Shown piece by piece: positions 1,525-11,747 of a DNA stretch of 11,747 nt (its first letter is position 1; every line of letters begins with the position of its first letter). This DNA is from Kiritimatiellia bacterium (lineage in GTDB: Bacteria > Verrucomicrobiota > Kiritimatiellia > SLAD01). Position numbers and translations under genes: made by a program. The stretch is taken from assembly GCA_007127595.1 (NCBI GenBank), contig SKZA01000299.1, positions 1-11,747 on the forward strand, given 5' to 3'. The notes under the pieces are model-generated. The model saw nothing but the letters and a program-made list of their open reading frames with translations, did no database searches and was not told the DNA's origin.

Positions 1525-2334
1525 TTAGAATGTGACAAATCCATGCAGTACCCAGCCCGATAGATCAAGTCGGATTTTGTACACTTCAGGGGCTGAGTAA
1601 GCGCCTAGCTCGTAACGATACCCTCCTCGAAGGCCGAACCCACTTCCGCGTCCAATCGATTGAGCCACCTGAATGCCCGCCTCTCCAACGAGACTAATTC
1701 TTTGCGCCCGGTCGAGGCCGCTTTTGCTATTCCCGAGACCAGACAACGAGCCGGATAGGTAAGCGTCCACCCCCGCCAGCCCAAGCGGAAAGGAGGTCCC
1801 ACCGCCCAGTCCAAGACCAAAAAGTTTCAAGTCTTCCCTCACCAGTTCCAAGGCCTCATTCTGATTATTAGCGCGAAGAGCGATTAAATCGTGCGATCCA
1901 TACCTGAGGCCAATCGCAAAATGTCCGGCTTCACCGAAGGTTATCCATGACAAGTCGACCAGATCAAAGGATCCGGAAAAATCAACAGTGCTGGATCGAG
2001 GAGACGTGCGAGGAATCGTGTCTCGGGTAGCAGTTCCCTGCGCAAAAGCATCAAAGGCATATCGTTGATACTCTAGTCGAAACCCTTGCCCACTATGAAT
2101 GTCATATTGCCAAATATGGGAAACCGTCAGGAATAAGGCTTGGTCCATATCATAATTCAATCGAGCGAGTTCAAGTGAGTCCCCGCTGCTTAGTGCGCGC
2201 AACGACGCGCTTGCCGATGGCTTAAAGTAGCTCCCTCCCACGATCCAGCGCCCCAAGGCTAGACACTCGCGAGTTTGCAGGAAAACGACAAATGCGATGA
2301 TCGCGATTCGCAGCAAAATTCTGTTTGTCCGCAT
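1525..2334 (-). CDS. Outer-membrane beta-barrel protein (269 aa) with a signal peptide
   Basis: ATG at 2334 is preceded by AGGGAGA. The N-terminus MRTNRILLRIAIIAFVVFLQ is a typical signal peptide. Gly/Ser/aromatic-rich alternating amphipathic segments follow, and the protein ends in a C-terminal Phe (…HGFVTF*), the classic outer-membrane protein signature. The upstream part of ORF 1525..2400 begins at a non-Met position. Confidence 0.7.
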   Translation of the reverse strand: MRTNRILLRIAIIAFVVFLQTRECLALGRWIVGGSYFKPSASASLRALSSGDSLELARLNYDMDQALFLTVSHIWQYDIHSGQGFRLEYQRYAFDAFAQGTATRDTIPRTSPRSSTVDFSGSFDLVDLSWITFGEAGHFAIGLRYGSHDLIALRANNQNEALELVREDLKLFGLGLGGGTSFPLGLAGVDAYLSGSLSGLGNSKSGLDRAQRISLVGEAGIQVAQSIGRGSGFGLRGGYRYELGAYSAPEVYKIRLDLSGWVLHGFVTF

Positions 2335-2401
2335 AGACAATCTCCCTTCATTGAGAGAGTAGTAGTTACATTTACTTCCGTCGATGATAATAGCCCGCAT
2401 C

Positions 2402-2423
2402 CAGCGGCGAAAAATCGCCGCTG
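2402..2423. other. Perfect 8-bp stem with 6-nt loop: CAGCGGCG-AAAAAT-CGCCGCTG
   Basis: Read directly from the sequence. It lies in the 365-nt gap between the two outer-membrane protein genes, about 68 nt upstream of the 1525..2334 gene start on the minus strand. No U-tract follows on either strand, so it is not a clear intrinsic terminator. It could be a 5' UTR structure or an operator. Confidence 0.3.
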
Positions 2424-2498
2424 CCTTCTGGCCTGAACACTTGCCACTCTTCCTGTGTGGTATATATCAATAAGTATATCTTTTAGTGGGGCGAATTT

Positions 2499-2692
2499 AT
2501 GGTTACGACAAAAGTGTTTCAGTCAGGACGGAGTCAGGCGGTACGGGTGCCCAAGCGGTATCGTTTCCGATCAAAGGAGGTCAATGTTCTGGCGACGCCA
2601 ATATTCAGACCCCGACCACGCTGGCAGACGACACGCGCCTAACTTCTCCACACGGGTCTTGGTCGCCTTCCCGCATCACGGCCCGCCAATAA
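2499..2692 (+). pseudogene. Orphan VapB/VagC-type (SpoVT/AbrB-fold) antitoxin remnant, probably frameshifted, with no toxin gene downstream
   Basis: ATG 2499 gives MVTTKVFQSGRSQAVRVPKRYRFRSKEVNV…, which closely matches the VapB/VagC N-terminal consensus M-x-TT-K-v-F-x-s-G-n-S-Q-A-V-R-l-P-K-x-f-r-F. That frame stops at 2640-2642 after 47 aa. The -1 frame continues …SGDANIQTPTT…SW… to 2692, matching the expected 'GDxxIxxP…W' continuation. This implies a 1-nt indel near 2570-2585. The adjacent gene at 2700 is an unrelated minus-strand outer-membrane protein. Confidence 0.45.
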
Positions 2693-2699
2693 CGCGTGG

Positions 2700-3386
2700 T
2701 TAAAACTCCTGCCGAAAACCAATCTCGACAAAGGGCATCGTAGTCTTCTCATCAAAGTCACCGCCCTTGAGCTGTTGGTGGCGGTAGCCGATGGCGAAGA
2801 AGACGGTACTGTCGGCTACGATGGTGTCCATAATCATGGAATAGGCTAGGCCTCCTTCGTAGGCCCATAACACGGCGGTGCCGTCGCTATCGTCCACGTC
2901 GGTCTTCATGCGCATGGGCGCGACCCGGGTGCTGCCGAAGACGAAGAAGCCGGAATAGCCGAGCGGCACACTGCCTTCCAAGCCGATTCCCGCACCAATC
3001 CCGGTGGTCTTGATGTCGCGCTCCAATTCATCCAATGCGCCTTGATCCAAATCCTGCCAGAGATAGCGAAGGTTGGCGAAAAGGCGAAAGGAGGGGGCAA
3101 TATTGAAACCAACCAGCAACTCAAAATCGGCCCGGTCCAACTTGCCGATGGAACCATAGGCGGCATCCAATCCGACCACGAATTGATCGCGATTACCAAA
3201 GTCGTATCGGATCGTGGGCCCGAACTGGACGCCATCCTCCTGTGCCCGTTCATCAAAGAGACTTTTCTCTTCCCAGTCCATGAAGCTCAACCGGAATCCG
3301 TAGGCGGCACTGTCGGCGCGGGTCGTCGTGGCGACCACCGAAAAGATTATTGCGGTGGCAGACAACATCATCATCGTCTTCTTCAT
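2700..3386 (-). CDS. Outer-membrane beta-barrel protein (228 aa), small OmpA/OmpW-like barrel
   Basis: ATG 3386 is preceded by AAGGAGAT. The signal peptide is MKKTMMMLSATAIIFSVVATTTRA. Alternating hydrophobic beta-strand pattern throughout. The C-terminus is …GFRQEF*. Confidence 0.7.
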   Translation of the reverse strand: MKKTMMMLSATAIIFSVVATTTRADSAAYGFRLSFMDWEEKSLFDERAQEDGVQFGPTIRYDFGNRDQFVVGLDAAYGSIGKLDRADFELLVGFNIAPSFRLFANLRYLWQDLDQGALDELERDIKTTGIGAGIGLEGSVPLGYSGFFVFGSTRVAPMRMKTDVDDSDGTAVLWAYEGGLAYSMIMDTIVADSTVFFAIGYRHQQLKGGDFDEKTTMPFVEIGFRQEF

Positions 3387-3410
3387 CGTTGTATCTCCTT
3401 ATTCCGTTGT

Positions 3411-4106
3411 TTACCGCGGTCGGGTCGTGGCTCGCAGGATACTGCGCAACAGCCATACGACGACAATCGCGGCAACGAGAATGGCGACGCCCCAAATGAG
3501 TTGGGTGCTGTAGTGGAACAGAAAGTCGCGGGGCGAGAGCACGGCCTCGCCGGTATAGATGCCACCGGCCAGTTGCTCGCGGGTATCGACCCGGGCGAGA
3601 AAGACTTGCACGCGCACGATGGTGCGCAGCCAGGTATGTTCGACCGACCGGACATGACCCAGCAGAATGGCGTCGGCGCCAATCGTCGTCTCGGGAATCC
3701 CAGCTTCCTCGGTCCACACGATTGTGGCGCGATTGAAGATGTCCCCGTAGCCTTCATCGGGATCCGTGCGGGCCAGTTCCCGTTCAATCACGTTCCAGAC
3801 CGATCCGCCCAATGTGACGATGCGTATGGCGTCGAGCCGGGTCATCTTGCCTTGTAGAATCGAGCTGAGATTACCGGGATCGCGGTCGAGTCGAACAATA
3901 CCGACCCGCTGTACCGCCTCGGCCTTGGGATCGGCCTGAAGGTCCGCAACCCACTGATCAAAAGCCCGTTCGGCAGCCAGATCAATATAGCGATCGACAA
4001 TGGGGCCGCTGGGTCCCTCGATGCGTTGGGCGCTGGCTGTGGCGGACCACAGCAGCAGGCCGGCGATTACTGTCGTTATCCATACGGTTTGAGTGGTCAA
4101 TTTCAT
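3411..4106 (-). CDS. Periplasmic protein (231 aa) with an N-terminal signal peptide and a C-terminal TM anchor, possibly with a CsgG/LpoB/FlgP-like fold
   Basis: ATG 4106 is preceded by AAGGAAAC. The signal peptide is MKLTTQTVWITTVIAGLLLWSATASAQ. The segment 'RVGIVRLDRDPGN…LSSILQGKMTRLDAIRIVTLGGSVWNVIERELA' resembles the conserved N-terminal motif of CsgG/LpoB/FlgP-family periplasmic proteins. This is a tentative call made from memory. The C-terminal hydrophobic helix LIWGVAILVAAIVVVWLL is followed by the basic tail RSILRATTRPR. Confidence 0.6.
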   Translation of the reverse strand: MKLTTQTVWITTVIAGLLLWSATASAQRIEGPSGPIVDRYIDLAAERAFDQWVADLQADPKAEAVQRVGIVRLDRDPGNLSSILQGKMTRLDAIRIVTLGGSVWNVIERELARTDPDEGYGDIFNRATIVWTEEAGIPETTIGADAILLGHVRSVEHTWLRTIVRVQVFLARVDTREQLAGGIYTGEAVLSPRDFLFHYSTQLIWGVAILVAAIVVVWLLRSILRATTRPR

Positions 4107-4131
4107 GACAGTTTCCTTTCGTGACGGGACC

Positions 4132-5043
4132 TTATTTATAACGCGAAACGTTGCGACGCAGAACATCCATGCGGCCGGGCTCGTAGCGGGAGGGGCGAAT
4201 ACCCAGCTGAGGGATTTCGCTGAGTAGCTGGGCGATGTCGGCCTCATGTTGCAGCCCATAAATCACCTCGTAGGTCGCCACACGGGATTCCTGGTCCCAA
4301 GCCAAAAGCTCAACATGATCGACGTAGTCGCGCTGTTCCAGCATCAGTCGGATGTGCTGGGCTTGGGCCATGTTGGGCACTTGATTAATCACAATGGCGG
4401 CCCACAACAGTTGATCGGATTTTCGCATCAGGTCGCGGATCAATTCATCGACCAGCGGCGAGGCCAATTGTTCCAGGGCCGCCCGGCCGGCGCGCAGACT
4501 GTCCTGACGGCGGGGACCATTATCCTCCAAACGGTTAGAGGCCAGCAGGGTCCCGTCCCGCCCTCGAATCGCTTTCACATCGGCGACGGCGCGATAGCGG
4601 GTGAAGTGACCGGTGGAATTCAGGAATTCGCTGCGGGCGTCGATGTCGATCACCAAATGAGCGCCGGTTCGCCGTGTAAGCTCGGCAATGGAGCCGGCCG
4701 GTGTGACGGACCCGGTGAAGATACGAAAATCCCGCTGCACCAATCCGCGTTCCAAGGCTTGGCCGATTTCGCTAACATCCGTTTGCCCGCCTTGCGCATC
4801 AATGACGCGTTCATTGCTGCGAATAACCGTTCGCAATTTGCCAAAAGAAATGAATTCACCCGACATCTCCTCCGCTTCGATGGGGTCAAGCCGGGGGGGC
4901 GATTCGGTCGGCGGTGGCGTCACGCGGGCGCGCGGAGGGGGCGCGGTTCCCGGGCGTGCGGTTCCGCATCCGGTCAAGAACACCGTGACCAGTGCGAGTG
5001 GGGCCAATATCAGCCAATCCCTGTATGTGCTGCGTCTTTTCAT
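4132..5043 (-). CDS. Lipoprotein (303 aa) of unknown function
   Basis: ATG 5043 is preceded by GGAGAAG. The lipobox is …LVTVFLTGC. A Pro-rich linker (PPPRARVTPPPTESPP) follows, then a globular region of alternating hydrophobic pattern (…AHLVIDIDARSEF…). It ends 25 nt before the next gene start. Confidence 0.7.
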   Translation of the reverse strand: MKRRSTYRDWLILAPLALVTVFLTGCGTARPGTAPPPRARVTPPPTESPPRLDPIEAEEMSGEFISFGKLRTVIRSNERVIDAQGGQTDVSEIGQALERGLVQRDFRIFTGSVTPAGSIAELTRRTGAHLVIDIDARSEFLNSTGHFTRYRAVADVKAIRGRDGTLLASNRLEDNGPRRQDSLRAGRAALEQLASPLVDELIRDLMRKSDQLLWAAIVINQVPNMAQAQHIRLMLEQRDYVDHVELLAWDQESRVATYEVIYGLQHEADIAQLLSEIPQLGIRPSRYEPGRMDVLRRNVSRYK

Positions 5044-5079
5044 TTCTTCTCCTTGTTGAACCTTTCTTCCAATTACACA

Positions 5080-6705
5080 TTATGAATTCGGCGGGTCCGA
5101 CCATGAGTTGTGCGGACCCACATCCACAATCTGGCCGCCGATGTATAGGGTCTTCCCATGCGTCAACCATTCCTTCTGTTTGCCGTCAACAAGCAGGAAA
5201 CCATCTTGCATTCGGCAGATCCATGCGTCGGTATCCGACCATTGCAAATCACGGCAGGCCACGGCTTCCCATAAAATCACATGCGTCACCGGTACATGGC
5301 GCGAACGCAGCACCAGGCTGAGCGCTTGATGATCGGCCTTGTGTTTGAGTTGCTTAAAGGGCGTGTGCCGCGCTTTGTCGCGGGTCTGTTGATAGCCCTC
5401 GAACACGTACGCGTCGGGTTCTTGATCACTGCCGGCCAGCGTCAGGGTAAAGGCGCGGTCTTTGGGTAAGGGACTGCTGCCGCCCGGCTGGACACGTTGC
5501 CCGTCCAGATACGTTCCGTAGGCACTGGGTTTATCGGTTCCCTGGTCGGGATAATAACCCAAGTCAACAACCGAACTGCGACCGCCGCGCCGCTCGATCC
5601 GGCAATGATAGCGACTGATTGCGGCGTCGCGCTCTTTCTCTTTTCTGGAACTGCCGGACCGGGCCACGATGGGACATTTACGGTTCTTGCCAATCTGAAT
5701 ATCGTCACCGGACAGCAGTTGAACGATTTGGGCGCCGCATCGAAGCGTTAGGTAGGGAAAGTGGGCATTGGCCGGTTGCGCCGGGATGCCGTCGCTATCG
5801 TCTTCCTCCAGGTCATTGCGTTTGCATAAGTGAAGATTGAGGTTGTTCCAGCAGGCGGGGATGTCGATGGCCGCCAGTTCGGTGACCGGATTGTCCTCTT
5901 TCGGGCGCAAGGCTTCCAAGCCGTCCATGTGCTGCTTGATCACATTATCGGCGGCGCCTTCAGCTTTGAGGTTGTTGTTGATCTCGATCTTGAGGCTGCT
6001 AATCACTGCACTGACTTTTTCAAAGCCGCGGAAGATCGTATGCGTGGGGCGGGCTTTGAATACTTGCCGTGTCTTCCGGCTGTCGTAGCCGATATAGATT
6101 TCAAAACTGATAATGCCTTGTAGGCCGGGCGGCGGACGATACGCCATATGAATATCGAGGCGCCGATGCGCAAATAACATCTCGTCCGGTTCCTCACGGG
6201 CGACCGGATTGCCATTCCGCCGGATTTCAATGAAGAGATTGGTTAAATGACTTTCTTGCGGGGTAATCCTGAATTGGAACGGGACATGCAGGCCATCCAT
6301 AAACACCCGGCTAAAGTTATACTCGACGCGCAATTCCTTGCAGTCCGACACCGGCGGTATCGCGGGGGACGTCTGGTTCTGTGGCGCTCGGGTATGGTCG
6401 TCACCGGCTTGATCCCGTGCCGCAGTGCTCGCTTCAGTCGGTAGCTGTTCGGTGGTCAACCCAATCGCTTGTTTGGCTTTATCCCAGATGGCGCCGGCCG
6501 TTTTCGCCGCCGCGTCCACGGACGACGCCTCATCGGTAGGCGCGGGGAGAGGCGGCTTTGGAAGTGGCGTAGCCGACTCAGCGGAGGCCGGCATCGCAAT
6601 CGGCGCGCGATCCGGCTGACTTAAGTCTGCCCCGCACGAAGAGCACATCCGGTCCCCATCCGGTGTCGGCATCGCGCAGGCGGGGCATCGACGGATTTCG
6701 CTCAT
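5080..6705 (-). CDS. Zinc-ribbon and FHA-domain protein (541 aa). It has an N-terminal Cys4 ribbon, a Pro-rich linker, a roughly 250-aa uncharacterised central domain, an FHA domain and a roughly 110-aa C-terminal extension
   Basis: ATG 6705 is preceded by GAGGA. The N-terminus is MSEIRRCPACAMPTPDGDRMCSSCGADL (CxxC…CxxC). The FHA signature is …IQIGKNRKCPIVARS…ISRYHCRIERRGG…VVDLG…SAYGTYLDGQRV…FTLTLAG, carrying the G-R…S-R-x-H…S-x-N/G-T core. Spacing to neighbouring genes is 35-54 nt. Confidence 0.8.
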   Translation of the reverse strand: MSEIRRCPACAMPTPDGDRMCSSCGADLSQPDRAPIAMPASAESATPLPKPPLPAPTDEASSVDAAAKTAGAIWDKAKQAIGLTTEQLPTEASTAARDQAGDDHTRAPQNQTSPAIPPVSDCKELRVEYNFSRVFMDGLHVPFQFRITPQESHLTNLFIEIRRNGNPVAREEPDEMLFAHRRLDIHMAYRPPPGLQGIISFEIYIGYDSRKTRQVFKARPTHTIFRGFEKVSAVISSLKIEINNNLKAEGAADNVIKQHMDGLEALRPKEDNPVTELAAIDIPACWNNLNLHLCKRNDLEEDDSDGIPAQPANAHFPYLTLRCGAQIVQLLSGDDIQIGKNRKCPIVARSGSSRKEKERDAAISRYHCRIERRGGRSSVVDLGYYPDQGTDKPSAYGTYLDGQRVQPGGSSPLPKDRAFTLTLAGSDQEPDAYVFEGYQQTRDKARHTPFKQLKHKADHQALSLVLRSRHVPVTHVILWEAVACRDLQWSDTDAWICRMQDGFLLVDGKQKEWLTHGKTLYIGGQIVDVGPHNSWSDPPNS

Positions 6706-6759
6706 ACGGTCATCCTCAAGGCCGACAAATAGTTGGTTTCCAAGCGTATCATCACGGCA

Positions 6760-8457
6760 TCATTTTATGATTTGTTGAGTGCCGGCTCCGGGGTTCTTGG
6801 CGGCTTCCGCTGTGGTTTCCAACGCCTTCTGCATGATGCGCTCGACCCGGTCGGCGGCCTCGTCCAGGACCTGTTTGCGCTCGGTCCATTCCTTGTCGCG
6901 TTCATCGCTCTTCGCTTTTTCCTGCTCGAGCAGGACACGCGCAAGGTCCGGGTTCTCTGCCGCATAAGCCGCCATTATTTCTTCCGGCGTCTTTCCGGCG
7001 GTTTGCATCTGCTTGTTCAGGTCCAGAAGGGATTGCCGTTTCGCCGGATCGTCAACTAGGCTGATCAAGGTGGCCAAATCAGCACCTTTACGGCTCTCAA
7101 TCCGTTGCGCCTCATCCTCGCGTGCCAGTTGGGCGCGGGCGGCGGCCTCGTCCCGCTCGATTTTTAGGCGCTCCTGCTCAAACTCCAACTCGAGCCGCCG
7201 CTTTTCCTGTTTTACCTTCAGCCACATTTGTGTGATGGCAACTTCGTTCTCTTCTTCCAAGCGTTTGGCTTCCCGGCTATACGCGTCGCCCAATTTCTTC
7301 AGGCCGATTTCGTTGGCCGTTTGCGCGGTGGCTTGGGCAAAGGCAAAGTCTGCCGCCTGCTTGTCAATTTCCTGACGATGCACCAGCCGCAGGAGGGCCA
7401 GTTCCTGAGTCCGGTGTTCCGTGGCCAAGCCCCGTTCTTGCGCCAATTGCGCGATGTATTCATTCAATTCCGCTTCCGACTTGAATTGATCCATCTTATC
7501 CGAGGCCAGCAGTTCGCGCAGACGCTGATCCAACTCGATCTGTCGCCGTTTCACCTCGACATCACCGGATTTCATCCGCAGCTCTTCGTATTCCTTGCCG
7601 GTGAACTCCGCTGCCGCCACGCGGATCAATTCCAATCCGTAACGGGGCAGTACATCCTTCATGGTTTGCGTCAGCGCATCTTCAATATGGAGTCGGCGTT
7701 GGGGGTCTTTGACCAAGTCTTCGATCGTCGACGTATTGGCGATGTTTTCCATCGCGTACCGGATCTCGCCGGTGAGCAGGGTCTCGATTTCCTGAAACGT
7801 TAGACGCTGATTGCCCTTGAATACGTTGGCCAGAAAGTCGGCCGCTTTCTTGTCAACGAAGTGAAACGCTACCTCCGTGTAAAGCTCAACCGGTATATCT
7901 TCCGCTGTGCGCAGGGCTTCTACCCGCAGCGGCAGGACGACGTCGCCGTTCTCCACCAGGACCACCGTGCGGGGCGGGGGATTGCCCCAATGATTGATCT
8001 TAAGCGCCATGCTTTCCGGGTTGTAGCGGCCGGGTGACAAGACATCCTTAAGCGCGCCACCATCCAGCAAAAGGGCGACAGTGCCTGCTTCGACAATTAG
8101 GCCGTCCTTCAGCATGGGCCGGATGTCACCGATTTCGAATCGTTCAGCCAACACCCCGCCCGGCCGTTGCCAGCGTCCACCGGCAATGCCGGCCCGCGTA
8201 TCTGGAAACAGCGGGGTACTGCAGTTCCAGCAGAAGTGCGACTCATTCCCGACCCACTTATTGCAGGTCGGACAACGCCACCATCCTCCGGGCGCACCCG
8301 CGCCGCACTGGCCGCAGAAGCGGGCGGCCTTCTTCACGCGATTACCGCAGCGCGGCGCTTTCGGATTTTGCCGGGCAGCCGTCAAGGCTTCGCCCGTCAA
8401 TACCTTTCCCGTTCGGGAATCGACCAATGCCTGACAACGATCTGAAAACAAGCCCAT
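6760..8457 (-). CDS. Double zinc ribbon, SPFH/Band-7 (flotillin/HflK-like) domain and long coiled-coil protein (565 aa), with no obvious TM segment
   Basis: Two in-frame ATGs occur (8463, 8457). AAGGAG lies 7 nt from the second. The N-terminus has CGNRVKKAARFCGQCG plus CPTCNKWVGNESHFCWNC. The SPFH-like region is …PGRYN…TAEDIPVELYTEVAFHFVD…TFQEIETLLTGEIR…GLELIRVAAAEF…. An E/R/K/A/Q-rich coiled coil of about 250 aa runs to the stop at 6760. Confidence 0.8.
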   Translation of the reverse strand: MGLFSDRCQALVDSRTGKVLTGEALTAARQNPKAPRCGNRVKKAARFCGQCGAGAPGGWWRCPTCNKWVGNESHFCWNCSTPLFPDTRAGIAGGRWQRPGGVLAERFEIGDIRPMLKDGLIVEAGTVALLLDGGALKDVLSPGRYNPESMALKINHWGNPPPRTVVLVENGDVVLPLRVEALRTAEDIPVELYTEVAFHFVDKKAADFLANVFKGNQRLTFQEIETLLTGEIRYAMENIANTSTIEDLVKDPQRRLHIEDALTQTMKDVLPRYGLELIRVAAAEFTGKEYEELRMKSGDVEVKRRQIELDQRLRELLASDKMDQFKSEAELNEYIAQLAQERGLATEHRTQELALLRLVHRQEIDKQAADFAFAQATAQTANEIGLKKLGDAYSREAKRLEEENEVAITQMWLKVKQEKRRLELEFEQERLKIERDEAAARAQLAREDEAQRIESRKGADLATLISLVDDPAKRQSLLDLNKQMQTAGKTPEEIMAAYAAENPDLARVLLEQEKAKSDERDKEWTERKQVLDEAADRVERIMQKALETTAEAAKNPGAGTQQIIK

Positions 8458-8469
8458 GACCATGCTCCT

Positions 8470-8820
8470 TTATTTCTTCTTCTCCGATTTCTTGTCCGTA
8501 TGTTCTTCGCAGGTGCGGATCTTTTTACGCGTCCAGCAATCATTGCAGATCGGCTCATCGCACACCTTGCACTTCTGTTGCACGGAGAGCCGGCTGTAGT
8601 AGCGCTTGCCACAGCTCGCGCAGCGCGTCTCCGGAGGATTGCGATTCGTCTTGCTTTGTTCGAGGTAGGCATGGAGGTCGGGGGTGGCGACACGGAAAAC
8701 GCGTCCGACGCGAACGGCGGGTAGCTCGCCGGAGCGAACCAGTTTGTAAATCAACTGATAGTTGACGCCGAGGACCTCCGCGACTTCTTCGAGCGATAAA
8801 AATGGCTTTTCCAGGGGCAT
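8470..8820 (-). CDS. Excisionase/MerR-family HTH DNA-binding protein fused to a C-terminal Cys-rich zinc ribbon (116 aa). It is the first gene of the operon and a putative regulator
   Basis: ATG 8820 is preceded by AAGGAC. The sequence 'LSLEEVAEVLGVNYQLIYKLVRSGELPAVRVGRVFRVATPDLHAYL' matches the excisionase-family HTH consensus (LT…EAAELLGVS…YRL…GELPA.R.GR..R…DL…L). The C-terminus is CASCGKRYY…CKVCDEPICNDCW…RTCEEH. The upstream 'M' at 8877 in the ORF track is a TTG inside a TTGACA -35-like box, not a start codon. Confidence 0.75.
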   Translation of the reverse strand: MPLEKPFLSLEEVAEVLGVNYQLIYKLVRSGELPAVRVGRVFRVATPDLHAYLEQSKTNRNPPETRCASCGKRYYSRLSVQQKCKVCDEPICNDCWTRKKIRTCEEHTDKKSEKKK

Positions 8821-8915
8821 AACCAAGTCCTTGATTAAATGTTTCTCCTGTTTATCTTTATTTATCTCTGGTGTCAATCAATTATTTTAAAACATTTTTG
8901 CACTTGGTTTATTTG
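8821..8915 (-). promoter_or_regulatory. AT-rich (about 30% GC) promoter island for the minus-strand operon. The candidate -35 is TTGACA (8877..8872), with a 17-nt spacer and a weak -10 TAAACA (8854..8849)
   Basis: Window GC is about 60%, and this 95-nt segment is about 30% GC. TTGACA was read on the minus strand. The first operon gene starts at 8820. Confidence 0.4.
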
Positions 8916-8923
8916 CGCCCAAA

Positions 8924-9055
8924 TTGGGCATTGGTGTCCTCGGCGCCGGTGGAACGGGGGAGGTGTATGGGGTTGAGCATACGACGTTGGAGCGAAGGTA
9001 CGCGCTGAAGTTGATGCCGGGGGTCTCTTGGCTGGGAAAATGTGACAATGCCTAA
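8924..9055 (+). pseudogene. Remnant of a Ser/Thr kinase N-terminal region (about 43 codons) holding only the Gly-loop through the catalytic Lys. It has no N-terminus and no remaining kinase domain
   Basis: Translation (L)GIGVLGAGGTGEVYGVEHTTLERRYALKLMPGVSWLGKCDNA* contains the GxGxxG loop followed by Y-A-L-K, the VAIK lysine motif. Upstream in frame there is only the AT-rich promoter, with a stop at 8888-8890. A stop follows at 9053-9055. Confidence 0.55.
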
Positions 9056-9156: not shown

Positions 9157-9483
9157 CTATCGCGCCATTATGCCTAGGAGGCAGTGCAGTTGGCAGGCAA
9201 TATCACCAATGTGTTTACGGTCGTCGCCCAGATTTCTGCGCCATGTAATATCTTCGCCGCTTTTAGCCATGTTTCGGCTCAGGATGTTACACGCATCAAT
9301 AAAGGCATTGTGGGCGCGAGTCCGCTCATCTTCCATCTCTTGTCGCGCTTCTGCAGAAGCCATAAACCAGTCCGTTCGCTTGCGCGCATAACGCACTGCA
9401 GCCAGTACCATGTTATCGACAAGATCGGTATGCCTCGAGCCCTTAATCGCCCTATACAGGCTTTCTATATCTTCAAAACTCAT
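9157..9483 (-). CDS. Hypothetical all-helical protein (108 aa) on a low-GC (about 47%) segment, divergent from abiEi
   Basis: ATG 9483. The track's upstream 'M' at 9492 is TTG. The segment 9240-9600 is 42-57% GC, versus about 60-65% in flanking genes. I recognise no family for MSFEDIESLYRAIKGSRHTDLVDNMVLAAVRYARKRTDW…. Confidence 0.45.
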   Translation of the reverse strand: MSFEDIESLYRAIKGSRHTDLVDNMVLAAVRYARKRTDWFMASAEARQEMEDERTRAHNAFIDACNILSRNMAKSGEDITWRRNLGDDRKHIGDIACQLHCLLGIMAR

Positions 9484-9716: not shown

Positions 9717-9774
9717 ATGCACTGAAACCGGGCGAGGTGGTCCCGGAGGGGCATCTCGGCGGGTGGGAATCGAT

Positions 9775-9821
9775 TTTCATTGCAACAAGGAGACGGAAGT
9801 GTCATTATGTTGCAATGAAAA
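9775..9821 (+). promoter_or_regulatory. Perfect 13-bp inverted repeat TTTCATTGCAACA-N21-TGTTGCAATGAAA spanning the abiEi RBS and start codon. It is the predicted AbiEi autoregulatory operator
   Basis: Left arm is 9775-9787 and right arm 9809-9821. The ATG at 9815 lies inside the right arm. The spacer holds AAGGAGA (9787-9793). AbiEi antitoxins are known to autorepress by binding inverted repeats in their promoters. Confidence 0.5.
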
Positions 9822-10453
9822 TTGAAGAGCTGCGAAATATCTTGGGCGACCAGGCGGTGTTCCGGACAGGAAACCTGCTGGCTGGGCAGGACGCGCCCGC
9901 CCATGTCCGGCGGCAATTGGCGCGGTGGGTGAAGGCGGGGAAAGTTATTCCGCTCCGTAGGGGACTCTACGTGCTGGCGGAGCCGTACGCGAAACAAACG
10001 CCGCATCCCTTCATACTGGCCAATGAAATGCGCCGGGCCTCCTATGTCAGCATGCAGTCGGCCCTTGCCTGGTACGGGTGCATTCCGGAATATGTGCCGA
10101 CGGTAACAAGCGTAACCACGGAACGACCGGAAGAAATAGAAAACGTCAAGGGCCGCTTTATCTTCCGTCATATCAAAAGAGATCTTCTGTGGGGCATGAC
10201 GCGGGAGGAGGTCGCGCCGGGCCAGATCGCGCTGGTGGCCTCTCCCGAAAAGGCCTTGATTGATCTGCTCTATCTAACAGCACACAGCGATGACGAGGGA
10301 TATCTTGATGAACTGCGATTGGATCCCGGGCACCGTCTATCGCCAGACCGCCTGATTGAGATGGCCGATCGCACGGGCTCCCAAAAAGTATTGCGCGCTG
10401 TTCATTACTTGGCCCGGGCATGGAAGCAGACGGAGGGGGGAGAGGATATATGA
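9815..10453 (+). CDS. abiEi: AbiEi-family antitoxin / transcriptional regulator (type IV TA), 212 aa
   Basis: MKIEELRNILGDQAVFRTGNLLAG…QLARWVKAGKVIPLRRGLYVL matches the AbiEi N-terminal wHTH motif (…L…G.l.R..RGvY.l). Its stop TGA at 10451-10453 overlaps the ATG of the next gene (ATGA). An alternative GTG start at 9737 cannot be excluded. AAGGAGA lies 21 nt upstream of ATG 9815. Confidence 0.75.
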   Translation: MKIEELRNILGDQAVFRTGNLLAGQDAPAHVRRQLARWVKAGKVIPLRRGLYVLAEPYAKQTPHPFILANEMRRASYVSMQSALAWYGCIPEYVPTVTSVTTERPEEIENVKGRFIFRHIKRDLLWGMTREEVAPGQIALVASPEKALIDLLYLTAHSDDEGYLDELRLDPGHRLSPDRLIEMADRTGSQKVLRAVHYLARAWKQTEGGEDI

Positions 10454-11253
10454 AGGATTTACTGCTGAATACCCTGCGTGATGAATCCGACGCCTTGCGC
10501 AAACGCAATCGGGCCCGCGAATTTCTGCAGGCGCGCATTTTGCTGTCCCTCCAGGATCAGGGTGCCTTCGCCAACTGGGCTTTTGTAGATGGGACAGCTT
10601 TGCGTTTTCTCTACGACCTGCCACGCTATTCCGAAGACCTGGACTTCTCGCTGCGGGCCCCCGGTGACGACGCCCGCTTCGCGTCCATCCTGCGGGCCGT
10701 TAAATCGGATCTCGTAGCCGAGGCGTACGAAGTGGACATCCGGGTCAGGGAGCAACGGACCGTCGCCGCCGCCATAATCAAATTCCGAGGGCTTCTCTAT
10801 GAAATGGACCTTTCCCCGCATCGCGACGAGACGTTTGCGGTCAAGGTGGAGATGGACACGAACCCACCGTCTGGCGCGGTATGTACGACGCGACTCGTGC
10901 GTAAACACTATCTGCTCCATCTCATGCAGCATGACCAAAGCTCCTTACTAGCCGGCAAGCTGCACGCCGTTTTGACGCGCAAATATACCAAGGGCCGGGA
11001 CCTATACGACTTGCTGTGGTATCTCTCGTCACCTGAATGGCCACCGCCGAACCTTGACCTATTGAGCGATGCCCTGGAGCAGACGGGTTGGGCTGGGGAG
11101 GCCCTGACGGAAACCGCCTGGCGGCAGGCGATCGCGGCACAACTCAAGAATATTGACTGGAAGCAAGCGCGTGAAGATGTGGCCCCCTTTCTCGAACGCA
11201 GTCAGGAGATCAATTTGATTGCGCCGGAACCCCTTGAACAATTGCTGAGATAA
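10450..11253 (+). CDS. abiEii: AbiEii/AbiGii-family nucleotidyltransferase toxin (DUF1814), 267 aa
   Basis: 'FVDGTALRFLYDLPRYSEDLDFSL' matches the AbiEii GGTAL…R.SEDLDF nucleotidyltransferase motif. The gene is translationally coupled to abiEi through the ATGA overlap. Confidence 0.8.
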   Translation: MKDLLLNTLRDESDALRKRNRAREFLQARILLSLQDQGAFANWAFVDGTALRFLYDLPRYSEDLDFSLRAPGDDARFASILRAVKSDLVAEAYEVDIRVREQRTVAAAIIKFRGLLYEMDLSPHRDETFAVKVEMDTNPPSGAVCTTRLVRKHYLLHLMQHDQSSLLAGKLHAVLTRKYTKGRDLYDLLWYLSSPEWPPPNLDLLSDALEQTGWAGEALTETAWRQAIAAQLKNIDWKQAREDVAPFLERSQEINLIAPEPLEQLLR

Positions 11254-11366: not shown

Positions 11367-11657
11367 ATGGACAAATCATTAGGAGATCAACCGACACCGC
11401 GACCGGCTGACGATCTGGGCGAAGGCATCGTCTCGATCGGCGAGGTCCTGACCCGCCGCCAGCGCGCTCGTCTGAAGGCGGGCGATGTGTTGCTCGGGCG
11501 CTACAAGATTTTGGGCGAACTGGGGCAGGGCGGCATGGGGCTGGTGTTCCGCTGTCTTGACGAGGTCTCAGGTATCGAAGTGGCCGTCAAGATGCTGCCA
11601 CCGGAAGTTTCCCGCGATTCCGAGCGGAAGCCGGGGTCGGACCACAGGTTTTTCTAG
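11367..11657 (+). pseudogene. Ser/Thr kinase N-terminal fragment (96 aa), truncated 22 residues after the catalytic lysine. The kinase domain does not continue in any frame
   Basis: …LLGRYKILGELGQGGMGLVFRCLDEVSGIEVAVKMLPPEVSRDSE… carries the Gly-rich loop and the VAVK motif, then a stop at 11655-11657. Neither downstream frame looks kinase-like. Confidence 0.5.
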
Positions 11658-11747
11658 AGCATCAACGACTTACGACAGGGAGAAGGCACTATTTGGGGGC
11701 TTAGAGGCGTTTTTTGCGGGTGTTTTGGGTCTCTAAGGGTTTAGAAT

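Follow-up and report, generated by a model that had tools for sequence, protein, structure and literature searches.

We analysed an 11,747-nt stretch of DNA (the window) from the Kiritimatiellia bacterium contig SKZA01000299.1 (assembly GCA_007127595.1), the middle of which is occupied by a row of closely packed minus-strand genes that we call g1 to g7, counted from the upstream end (Table 1). We show that the segment 2700-8924 is a six-gene operon, g1-g6, and that this operon is one lineage's version of a gene cluster kept in Verrucomicrobiota, Lentisphaerae and Kiritimatiellae, three classes of the Planctomycetes-Verrucomicrobia-Chlamydiae (PVC) superphylum. The best overall explanation, to which we assign a probability of about one half, is a kinase-FHA-SPFH scaffold that is linked to the cell envelope and has membrane remodelling as its output.

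The open reading frame (ORF) listing places seven minus-strand ORFs within 1525-8877, a span that still includes an uncorrected start of g1; starts were corrected from the N-termini of homologues and from the gene calls on a matching ENA contig (ERZ27301262 k141_2361241, 21,356 bp, numbered L039 among our loci). Successive gaps from g1 to g6 measure 12, 54, 36, 25 and 24 nt and are followed by one of 365 nt before g7, and a plus-strand kinase gene converging on the row stops 10 nt from g7. In the composition profile, GC content drops from a window mean of ~57% to 29-30% immediately before g1. The tight packing and the single low-GC island agree with the original prediction, an earlier reading of this DNA that had joined all seven genes into one uncharacterised envelope-spanning phospho-signalling system. 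Scans of the window for Rfam families, tRNAs and repeats returned nothing relevant except an inverted repeat at the antitoxin gene AbiEi.

Table 1. Features of the window and, in the last five rows, of related loci (there, positions follow the locus number). Strand and description are given where available.
Feature	Position	Strand	Description
g1	8470-8820	minus	116 aa; true start is ATG 8820
g1, excisionase/MerR-type winged helix-turn-helix (HTH)	~8653-8802	minus	
g1, C-terminal Cys-rich zinc-binding module	~8494-8628	minus	
g2	6760-8457	minus	565 aa
g2, N-terminal double zinc ribbon	~8221-8355	minus	
g2, SPFH/Band 7 domain	~7582-8097	minus	
g3	5080-6705	minus	541 aa
g3, FHA domain	~5464-5697	minus	
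g4	4132-5043	minus	303 aa, lipoprotein
g5	3411-4106	minus	231 aa, signal peptide and C-terminal transmembrane (TM) helix
g5, C-terminal TM helix	~3423-3521	minus	
g5, C-terminal tail	3411-3425	minus	...T-R-P-R-COOH
g6	2700-3386	minus	228 aa, probable small outer-membrane beta-barrel protein
g6-g7 intergenic gap	2335-2699	minus	365 nt; AT-rich stretch near 2450-2500
g7	1525-2334	minus	269-aa ORFan, outside the conserved system
AT-rich island, likely promoter	8800-8924	minus	29-30% GC
-35 hexamer	8877-8872	minus	exact TTGACA
-10-like hexamer	8854-8849	minus	TAAACA
Convergent kinase	3-1514	plus	C-terminal 503 of 791 aa
Convergent kinase, four W-x25-W units	582-1480	plus	~residues 194-492 of the C-terminal part
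108-aa ORF	9157-9483	minus	between AbiEi and the promoter island
AbiEi/AbiEii toxin-antitoxin (abortive infection) module	9815-11253	plus	
Inverted repeat	9770-9825		18 nt, 94% complementary, 20-nt spacer; straddles the AbiEi start (9815)
Divergent Ser/Thr kinase, N-terminal part	11367-11657	plus	at contig end
c8-c11 pairs	L003:12581-14326; L008:17207-18968; L018:13338-15103		also in 15 other loci
c18	L018:17969-18637; L020:18349-19011; L025:19049-19579		small protein after g4, Kiritimatiellia
c19	L003:4478-5320; L006:8707-9531; L007:351-1202; L008:8194-9039; L036:8697-9602; L037:8714-9589		~280-aa membrane protein
c23	L018:18664-20580		M48-like zinc peptidase; one or two follow c18
c16/c21, loci examined for the C-terminus	L003, L006, L011, L012, L013, L018, L020, L021, L026, L029, L036, L038		

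The first three genes encode zinc-binding proteins. None of the three has a hydrophobic segment, in agreement with the cytoplasmic placement proposed for them originally, and the domain assignments made then, namely an excisionase-type HTH with a Cys cluster in g1, an SPFH domain with a zinc ribbon in g2 and an FHA domain with a Cys4 ribbon in g3, all hold. g1 matches HTH_17 in Pfam (E 1.1e-12), the excisionase model TIGR01764 in NCBIfam (1.1e-14; the NCBIfam scan of the window proteins gave nothing besides this HTH) and, at its gathering score, Rv2175c_wHTH in Pfam (4.2e-6); downstream of the HTH lie seven Cys, in a module resembling the N-terminus of c7 (hhalign 94.7%), a further zinc-ribbon family found in related loci. 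g2 matches Band_7 (PF01145; E 1.1e-12, 48.9 bits vs. a cut-off of 23.6, residues 123-294), which makes it a member of the SPFH family, and the same domain is present in most of the 120 g2 homologues listed; the eight Cys of its double zinc ribbon are invariant across 18 homologues, the DZR match itself (7.6e-6) lying just under the Pfam cut-off, and a match to the YdjI-type Band_7_1 (3.3e-4) is likewise below cut-off. The last ~270 residues of g2 are charged, consist to 66% of E/K/R/Q/A/L, contain four Pro and give a positive crude heptad score, all of which fits, but does not prove, a long helical or coiled stretch; the 250-aa coiled coil that had been assigned to g2 has composition and heptad score as its basis, and none stronger. 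Nowhere in g2 does a 19-residue window exceed 1.6 on the Kyte-Doolittle scale, and the hydrophobic anchor of flotillin, HflK-C and stomatin is accordingly missing. Searches of solved structures with the single g2 sequence or an 18-sequence profile returned no match; no NfeD partner gene was seen, and an FtsH-like gene occurs only in locus L035, on the opposite strand.

g3 starts with one Cys4 zinc ribbon and a low-complexity linker, and its FHA domain (PF00498, E 3.4e-8) scores above the Pfam cut-off; 17 of the 20 members of the family match FHA. Across 20 relatives G339, S364, H367, S394 and G397 are invariant or nearly so, and G339 is followed by Arg or Lys in most of them (Lys in the window); the Gly, Ser-x-x-His and Ser..Gly-Thr positions of the phosphothreonine-binding loops are thus kept, and g3 carries an intact FHA signature. 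The remainder consists of a conserved middle domain (~residues 120-320) with no assigned fold and a conserved C-terminal domain with a W..PG motif. A search of solved structures with the single g3 sequence gave no match; for its ribbon and linker, the archaeal ZnF-FHA protein ArnA comes closest among solved proteins (1.5e-7).

The next three genes encode predicted envelope proteins. g4 has a signal peptide with the lipobox LTGC (residues 23-26), whose Cys26 is invariant in 16 homologues and is followed by a Pro-rich tether of ~35 aa, so that the lipoprotein of the original prediction is confirmed. Its AlphaFold2 model (predicted local distance difference test, pLDDT, 74.5) comprises two domains, of which the first (residues 60-207) adopts the PelC/FlgT/HpaA/TolB-N/CsgG fold and the second (residues 213-300) an alpha/beta fold; in Foldseek the closest entries to the whole model are the flagellar H-ring protein FlgT and an LPHT-ring protein (~9e-8). 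g5 combines a cleavable signal peptide with a periplasmic domain modelled in the LpoB/CsgG fold and a C-terminal TM helix, in line with the inner-membrane-anchored periplasmic protein proposed earlier. All the listed proteins of g5 and of its larger relatives c16 and c21 that are complete at the C-terminus finish with a TM helix, and in most of those listed the helix is followed by R-[PV]-R-COOH (TTRPR, MSRPR, MTRVR, MLRVR and others). This end may be a cytoplasmic docking motif, and it is the most obvious candidate for a contact between the two sides of the inner membrane. g6 has a signal peptide, a C-terminal ...GFxQEF with an invariant terminal Phe and a beta-moment ~2 sd above shuffles; it matches OMP_b-brl (PF13505) at E 1.6e-4 (22.3 bits vs. 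a cut-off of 28.7), and its profile matched no solved structure. g6 is thus a probable small outer-membrane beta-barrel protein, whereas the second of the two barrels originally proposed, g7, has neither a Pfam match nor a homologue.

The comparison covered 38 distinct loci, namely the window, 33 that came from scanning a single genome of each species and a remainder obtained through exact-protein look-ups; tblastn, blastp clustering, iterated hidden Markov models (HMMs) and best-family assignment were applied to them. The iterated HMMs for g1 and g3 drifted through their shared zinc ribbons, and counts are therefore taken from blastp clustering and best-family assignment; nearly all loci come from metagenome-assembled genomes, the evidence is computational throughout, and Pfam annotation of neighbouring genes covers six loci (the annotated loci below). 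g2 has at least 180 full-length homologues (E≤0.001), and the named ones belong to Verrucomicrobia, Lentisphaerae and Kiritimatiellae. By tblastn, g1-g2-g3 recur in nearly all of 34 loci; g1 precedes g2 in 32 of the 38, and g3 follows g2 in 31, all exceptions but one being contig ends. g4 forms a single blastp cluster found in 24 loci, and g5 is homologous to c16 and c21 (hhalign 97% and 97.8%), which adjoin g4 in other loci. Two arrangements, both with every gene on one strand, account for the cluster: type I, g1 g2 g3 g4 g5 [g6] [c7] [c8 c11]; and type II, g1 g2 g3 c8 c11 c7 g5 g4 c18 c23, which is found in Kiritimatiellia. g6 occurs in six loci of one subclade (the window, L035, L001, L002, L008 and L041). 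Mean identities are 45-53% for g1 and g2 and 24-27% for the envelope genes. No relatives of the cluster were found in viral contigs or plasmids, and the cluster does not appear to be mobile.

These comparisons bear on the simplest alternative to a single system, that the cytoplasmic and envelope genes belong to two unrelated operons that merely adjoin. The faster divergence of the envelope genes, the modest correlations of identity between components and three loci without g4 and g5 would be expected on such a view. However, of 27 informative loci, those with sufficient flanking sequence, 24 have g4 and a g5-superfamily gene in the same same-strand cluster as g1-g3, across three PVC classes and even where the order is rearranged and other genes are interleaved (two further loci end inside a g5 relative); the gaps within the operon of the window are 24-54 nt from g2 to g6; and neither gene set matches any known operon. 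The synteny contradicts the idea of two adjoining operons, which we consider very improbable. Because g4 and g5 stay with g1-g3 in 24 of 27 loci and across two gene orders, the data support the view that the cytoplasmic and envelope genes g1-g5 constitute one conserved unit. The original prediction had named separate, well-known operons or a lack of synteny as findings that would undo it, and had called for a search for co-occurrence of the SPFH, FHA and periplasmic genes: for g1-g5 that co-occurrence is found, for g6 synteny holds in part (six loci), and for g7, which has no relative, it fails entirely.

The DNA upstream of g1 contains the likely promoter. Within the AT-rich island, an exact -35 hexamer TTGACA precedes an A-rich spacer of 17 nt and, after it, the -10-like hexamer TAAACA; the start of g1 in the ORF listing, TTG 8877, is the -35 hexamer itself. 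The exact TTGACA is conserved across three PVC classes: 23 of 28 non-redundant loci have it 54-122 nt (mostly 75-88) upstream of the conserved S-L-E-E codons of g1 and inside an AT-rich island, against a same-strand background of 0.022 per 140 nt. A generic sigma-70 scan gave signals no better than shuffles and did not call the conserved TTGACA; the recurrence of the hexamer nevertheless supports a single conserved promoter before g1. The recurring TTGACAAC/A with its A-rich spacer could also be an operator of g1.

At its other end, the conserved operon is marked off by the 365-nt gap after g6, in which no terminator signal above chance was found. g7 matches itself alone among 1.84e9 (1.84 billion) representative proteins, matches no Pfam or NCBIfam family, has no counterpart in any related locus and bears no similarity to g6, so that it is not a paralogue of g6. 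Its GC content at third codon positions (GC3) is 0.51 vs. 0.66-0.71 for g1-g6, and GC and GC3 of gap and g7 together are ~0.50-0.52. In L035, the nearest relative (86% identity in g2), 88 nt separate g6 from the convergent kinase, and in L041 other small genes occupy the position of g7. Because g7 has no homologues, is absent from relatives, has a foreign GC3 and sits at a site that is empty in L035, we conclude that it was either inserted recently or is doubtful as a gene, and that it lies outside the system; the seven-gene unit of the original prediction has to be reduced to six genes, the seventh being a non-conserved ORFan at a variable spot. With an N-terminal hydrophobic segment, a C-terminal Phe and a beta-moment not above shuffles, g7 may be an envelope protein or not a real gene. 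The AT-rich stretch in the gap could be a promoter of its own.

In most relatives the cluster is larger than in the window. c7, present in 19 loci, is a soluble protein. c8, present in 18 distinct loci, matches Pfam Snf7 in all 17 members tested (best E 4.7e-7, mostly sub-threshold); its profile finds yeast Snf7 as the best solved match (weak, E 0.1), PspA_IM30 is absent from the families that it matches at E≤0.01, and many members have a C-terminal amphipathic helix, E-L-D-x-R-V-x-x-G-Q-E-R-V-K-x-L-L. c11, present in 15 loci, is a classical AAA ATPase, residues 16-366 of which align with positions 19-365 of the 370-position CdvC model of NCBIfam (E 2e-56); the score falls far short of the 650-bit equivalog cut-off and is similar to those against Cdc48 D2 and PAN. 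Vps4_C is weakly matched in 5 of 14 members, and the N-terminal three-helix region is MIT-like by eye only. In L008, g1-g6 are followed by c7, c8 and c11; as this locus carries both sets, the two halves belong to one cluster. In the available sequence of the window, L035, L041 and L001, c7, c8 and c11 are absent. c18, most members of which end in an aromatic residue, matches the LA_2272 surface-repeat and VC2662 families and may be the counterpart of g6, to which hhalign finds no relationship; hhalign likewise finds g4 unrelated at the sequence level to g5, c16, c7 and c18. Just upstream of g1, usually divergent, many loci (Table 1) have c19, with a signal or TM segment, two or three C-terminal TM helices and ...C-E-R-I-A as its conserved end; the window, with the AbiE module in that place, lacks c19, and its marginal profile similarity to g5/c16 (hhalign 73-78%) was not used as a link. 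Because most relatives carry the Snf7-like and CdvC/Vps4-like genes, the likely output of the cluster is membrane remodelling or repair. We found no report in the literature of a Snf7-like/AAA pairing in PVC bacteria.

Ser/Thr kinases accompany nearly every locus. The gene that converges on the window operon encodes, on the ENA contig, a full 791-aa Pkinase protein, and the part inside the window runs from the last stretch of the catalytic domain through one TM helix to an extracytoplasmic region in which four W-x25-W units, with paired Trp 26 residues apart (W194/W220, W270/W296, W357/W383 and W441/W467), stand in an Ala/Glu/Arg-rich helical context; the outer domain has no Pfam match. A converging membrane Ser/Thr kinase with external repeats had been foreseen from the window alone and is borne out. 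A kinase upstream of the L025 cluster also has the W-repeat region, at 26% identity over 225 aa. Compared with the kinases that close the type II clusters of L018, L020 and L025, the convergent kinase shows 58-68% identity in its catalytic domain, although the SPFH proteins of those loci are only 34-38% identical to that of the window; most cluster-adjacent kinases are 40-68% identical and most of the rest, among them the convergent kinase at the equivalent position in L035, 25-34%. Such values suggest a cluster-associated kinase subfamily.

Our analysis therefore keeps one part of the original phospho-signalling proposal and alters another: the linkage to kinases and the FHA protein stand, but the cluster is usually larger, with c7, c8, c11 and M48-like genes, which shifts its likely function from pure signalling towards membrane scaffolding or remodelling. 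A role in phospho-signalling would follow from three features, the FHA signature of g3, the kinase linkage and the relationship of the winged HTH of g1 to Rv2175c, and the likeliest function that we infer is phosphorylation-controlled membrane scaffolding or remodelling coupled to the envelope. The kinases would sense an extracytoplasmic cue through their external domains and phosphorylate Thr on cluster proteins or on disordered linkers; the FHA domain of g3 would read these phosphothreonines and gather the components; g2 would build its SPFH scaffold against the inner membrane, on the cytoplasmic side; and g5 would bridge that membrane with its helix and R-x-R end, joining g4, and here also g6, in the periplasm. 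g1 would set transcription of the operon, possibly under kinase control, as in the Rv2175c/PknL pair of mycobacteria. The output would be local remodelling, repair or stabilisation of membrane at an envelope contact site; in the lineage of the window, the module may act as a scaffold or sensor alone, or with partners encoded elsewhere.

Several observations weigh against this explanation. g2 lacks a membrane anchor, and its association with the membrane is an assumption; the model of g5 is of moderate confidence (pLDDT 66). No phosphatase was seen in any annotated locus, and kinases are abundant in the PVC genomes that carry the cluster, so their linkage to it may partly reflect kinase-rich regions. 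The Snf7-like and AAA genes are absent from the window, its 21-kb contig, L035, L041 and L001; three informative loci (L010, L031 and L032) lack both g4 and g5. The correlations of pairwise identity between components are positive but modest (Spearman 0.16-0.60), and co-transcription of g1-g6 is inferred from spacing and synteny only.

[quoted passage not shown] The SPFH cage and the FHA adaptor would then recruit the Snf7-like polymer and the CdvC/Vps4-like ATPase under control of the kinases, with g5 and g4 coupling the assembly to the outer membrane, and such a machine could serve membrane scission, vesicle formation, envelope repair or division. Archaeal ESCRT loci (the Meth_adaptin, Halo_FHA and main-clade types) carry SPFH-coiled-coil-zinc-ribbon proteins, FHA proteins and membrane Ser/Thr kinases of the PEGA and PQQ repeat types next to ESCRT-III and a Vps4/CdvC-type ATPase (PMC10936438), and the PVC clusters resemble them at the level of the parts list. 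They differ in that the host is bacterial and the periplasmic lipoprotein and outer-membrane parts are diderm-specific; in that no ESCRT-I, ESCRT-II, adaptin-appendage or CdvA-like domains were detected in the PVC cluster; and in that the window has no ESCRT-III-like gene and no ATPase gene, the ESCRT-III plus Vps4/CdvC combination of an ESCRT-type locus being found neither in the window nor in its 21-kb contig. The archaeal study states that ESCRT components, other than PspA/Vipp1, cannot be identified in bacteria (Makarova et al. 2024, PMC10936438). A survey of the PSP (phage shock protein) response describes isolated transfers of Vps4-like ATPases to bacteria, with snf7 displaced or absent, and does not mention FHA (PMC11237479).

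Within bacteria, the nearest comparison is the PspA-YdjGHI envelope-stress module of Bacillus subtilis, where the SPFH protein YdjI recruits PspA, a homologue of ESCRT-III, to the membrane (Scholz et al. 2021, PMC8581546). Both involve a soluble SPFH protein without the classical flotillin hairpin, small zinc-ribbon and membrane proteins and an ESCRT-III-superfamily partner at the inner membrane, and the PVC relatives hold the SPFH gene and the Snf7-like gene in one cluster. In contrast to B. subtilis, the window has no PspA_IM30 gene and the partner in relatives matches Snf7, not PspA; the PVC zinc ribbons are fused to SPFH, FHA and HTH proteins; and the PVC cluster adds FHA, Ser/Thr kinases, an AAA ATPase, periplasmic lipoproteins and outer-membrane proteins. 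No match to PspA_IM30, PspB, PspC or PspF was found in the window or in the annotated relatives.

A different possibility is that the cluster regulates cell-wall synthesis or division, with g5 and g4 activating or positioning peptidoglycan synthases and the SPFH and FHA proteins organising the cytoplasmic side, in the manner of PknB with FhaA/FhaB in Actinobacteria. The LpoB-like fold of g5 would suit this role, as would the CdvC-like ATPase of relatives, given that archaeal CdvC and ESCRT-III act in division; and loss of YdjG/YdjH is reported to delocalise peptidoglycan synthesis in B. subtilis (PMC8581546). However, the annotated loci contain no gene for a penicillin-binding protein, SEDS, Mur or Fts protein, the fold is common to many functionally unrelated lipoproteins, and identity to LpoB is 13% in the structural alignment. 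We regard a cell-wall regulator as improbable.

The envelope proteins invite another comparison, with the ring-forming lipoproteins PelC, CsgG, LpoB, FlgT, GNA1162 and TolB-N, whose fold g4 and g5 are modelled to share. The likeness is at fold level only: g4 and g5 have no Pfam match to the CsgG, PelC or LpoB families, their larger relatives show only faint or weak LpoB matches, sequence identities to PelC/CsgG/LpoB-fold proteins are 8-15%, partner genes are absent, and g5 is anchored by a C-terminal TM helix with an R-x-R end, not by lipid. Since rings beneath the outer membrane are built by many proteins of the PelC/CsgG/FlgT fold, g6 probably belongs to the outer membrane and kinase-gated FHA proteins are known to control assembly of the type VI secretion system (T6SS), g4 and g5 might be imagined as a PelC/CsgG-type ring that feeds a g6 channel and exports a surface polymer or fibre under kinase-FHA control, as in Pel, curli or TagQRST-PpkA-Fha1. 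This, too, is unlikely: no glycosyltransferase, polymerase, secretion ATPase, secretin, amyloid subunit or T6SS core gene is present in the annotated loci; g6 is confined to six loci and most type I clusters have no outer-membrane candidate; and g4 and g5 lack sequence membership of CsgG, PelC and LpoB. Among the annotated neighbours in the six loci we found none of the curli subunits CsgA/B/E/F, none of PelA-G and no class A penicillin-binding protein. Pfam gave no match to TolQ/R/A, the TolB beta-propeller or the OmpA-like domain of Pal, the TolB N-domain fold being all that is shared with Tol-Pal. Readings as a curli, Pel, Tol-Pal or T6SS-accessory system were rejected because their partner genes are absent.

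The logic of an envelope-spanning relay nevertheless has a close precedent. In the TagQRST-PpkA-PppA-Fha1 pathway of the Pseudomonas aeruginosa H1-T6SS, a membrane Ser/Thr kinase has a lipoprotein of the outer membrane and a periplasmic protein upstream of it, and an FHA scaffold reads the phosphothreonine. The PVC cluster would follow the same logic and has both kinase and FHA protein, but the annotated PVC loci contain no T6SS core gene, PP2C phosphatase or ABC-type TagS/TagT, there is no sequence relationship, and g3 additionally contains a zinc ribbon and two more domains, with an SPFH protein as its partner gene product. Two of the cytoplasmic proteins have single-protein precedents as well. 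g3 resembles ArnA, the Sulfolobus archaellum regulator, in joining a zinc ribbon to an FHA domain, and differs from it in having two further domains, the match covering ribbon and linker only; g1 resembles Rv2175c, the PknL-controlled winged HTH protein of Mycobacterium tuberculosis, and differs from it in its extra Cys-rich module and in that its primary match is to generic HTH_17/excisionase models. Both ArnA and Rv2175c are controlled by Ser/Thr kinases. The parts of the cluster are thus known domain families and its logic has precedents; we found no description of this gene cluster in the literature, and the earlier statement that it belongs to no recognised system stands, no match to a secretion, curli, Tol-Pal, T6SS or defence system being found at system level.

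The region upstream of the operon contains the AbiE module that had been noted at the outset. AbiEii matches its PADLOC model at 2.6e-65 over 251 of 270 profile positions, and the upstream overlapping ORF, AbiEi, gives weak matches to AbiEi_4 and AbiEi_3. An inverted repeat straddles the AbiEi start (Table 1); AbiEi antitoxins autoregulate at such sites. By comparison with L035 and L041, which have kinases at this position, the AbiE module and the 108-aa ORF are an insertion between the divergent kinase and g1. The 108-aa ORF has no counterpart in related loci; its LemA/MamQ-like matches are insignificant (E 0.06-0.09). The divergent kinase fragment shares 79% identity with the first of the kinases divergent from the cluster in L035. 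Its ORF runs off the end of the ENA contig, and in the window the frame changes near 11627, ~120 nt before the window ends; over the kinase N-terminus (11367-11747), window and ENA contig agree at only 86.5% protein identity, and the window extends ~100 nt past the end of the contig. The window is probably a different assembly of the same population as the ENA contig, and the truncated kinase fragments reported originally are probably an assembly-end effect, so that their truncation is not reliable.

An AbiE module directly upstream might suggest that the whole cluster is an anti-phage or abortive-infection system, in which kinases and FHA protein sense infection and the SPFH and membrane parts damage or seal the membrane. 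Toxin-antitoxin genes and transposases near some relatives point in the same direction, as do a weak match of g1 to the mad1 HTH of MADS, matches of the kinase to the PD-T4-6 and mad6 kinase models, a match of c11 to IetA and one of c23 to Lit-type peptidases. All of these matches, however, are generic and at domain level (HTH, Pkinase, AAA, zinc peptidase); PADLOC-DB 2.0 has no model for g2-g7, the c7-like ribbons, c8, c16, c18, c19 or c21; no relatives were found in the viral contigs or plasmids searched; and periplasmic and outer-membrane parts would be unusual for a defence system. A promoter conserved in three classes and mean identities of 45-53% for g1 and g2 suggest a housekeeping function or a trait of the lineage more than a patchily distributed island gene set. 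We judge a defence function unlikely. MADS in particular was rejected, as the similarity is confined to generic HTH, kinase and ATPase domains and no methyltransferase is present.

On a modest reading, our work describes a new conserved neighbourhood with five protein families of unknown function, and two motifs that lend themselves to testing: the promoter element before g1 and the R-x-R with which the tail-anchored protein ends. If the fuller explanation is true, PVC bacteria, most of them uncultured, hold an unrecognised system that joins eukaryote-like Ser/Thr phosphosignalling to an SPFH scaffold and spans the periplasm to the outer membrane, and to which most members add Snf7-like and Vps4/CdvC-like proteins. 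Such a system would be a diderm counterpart of the archaeal ESCRT systems with the same SPFH, FHA and kinase accessories; it would bear on the recruitment and regulation of ESCRT-III and on gene flow between archaea and PVC bacteria, and would provide a concrete handle on the envelope biology of a superphylum whose unusual membranes have long been under discussion.

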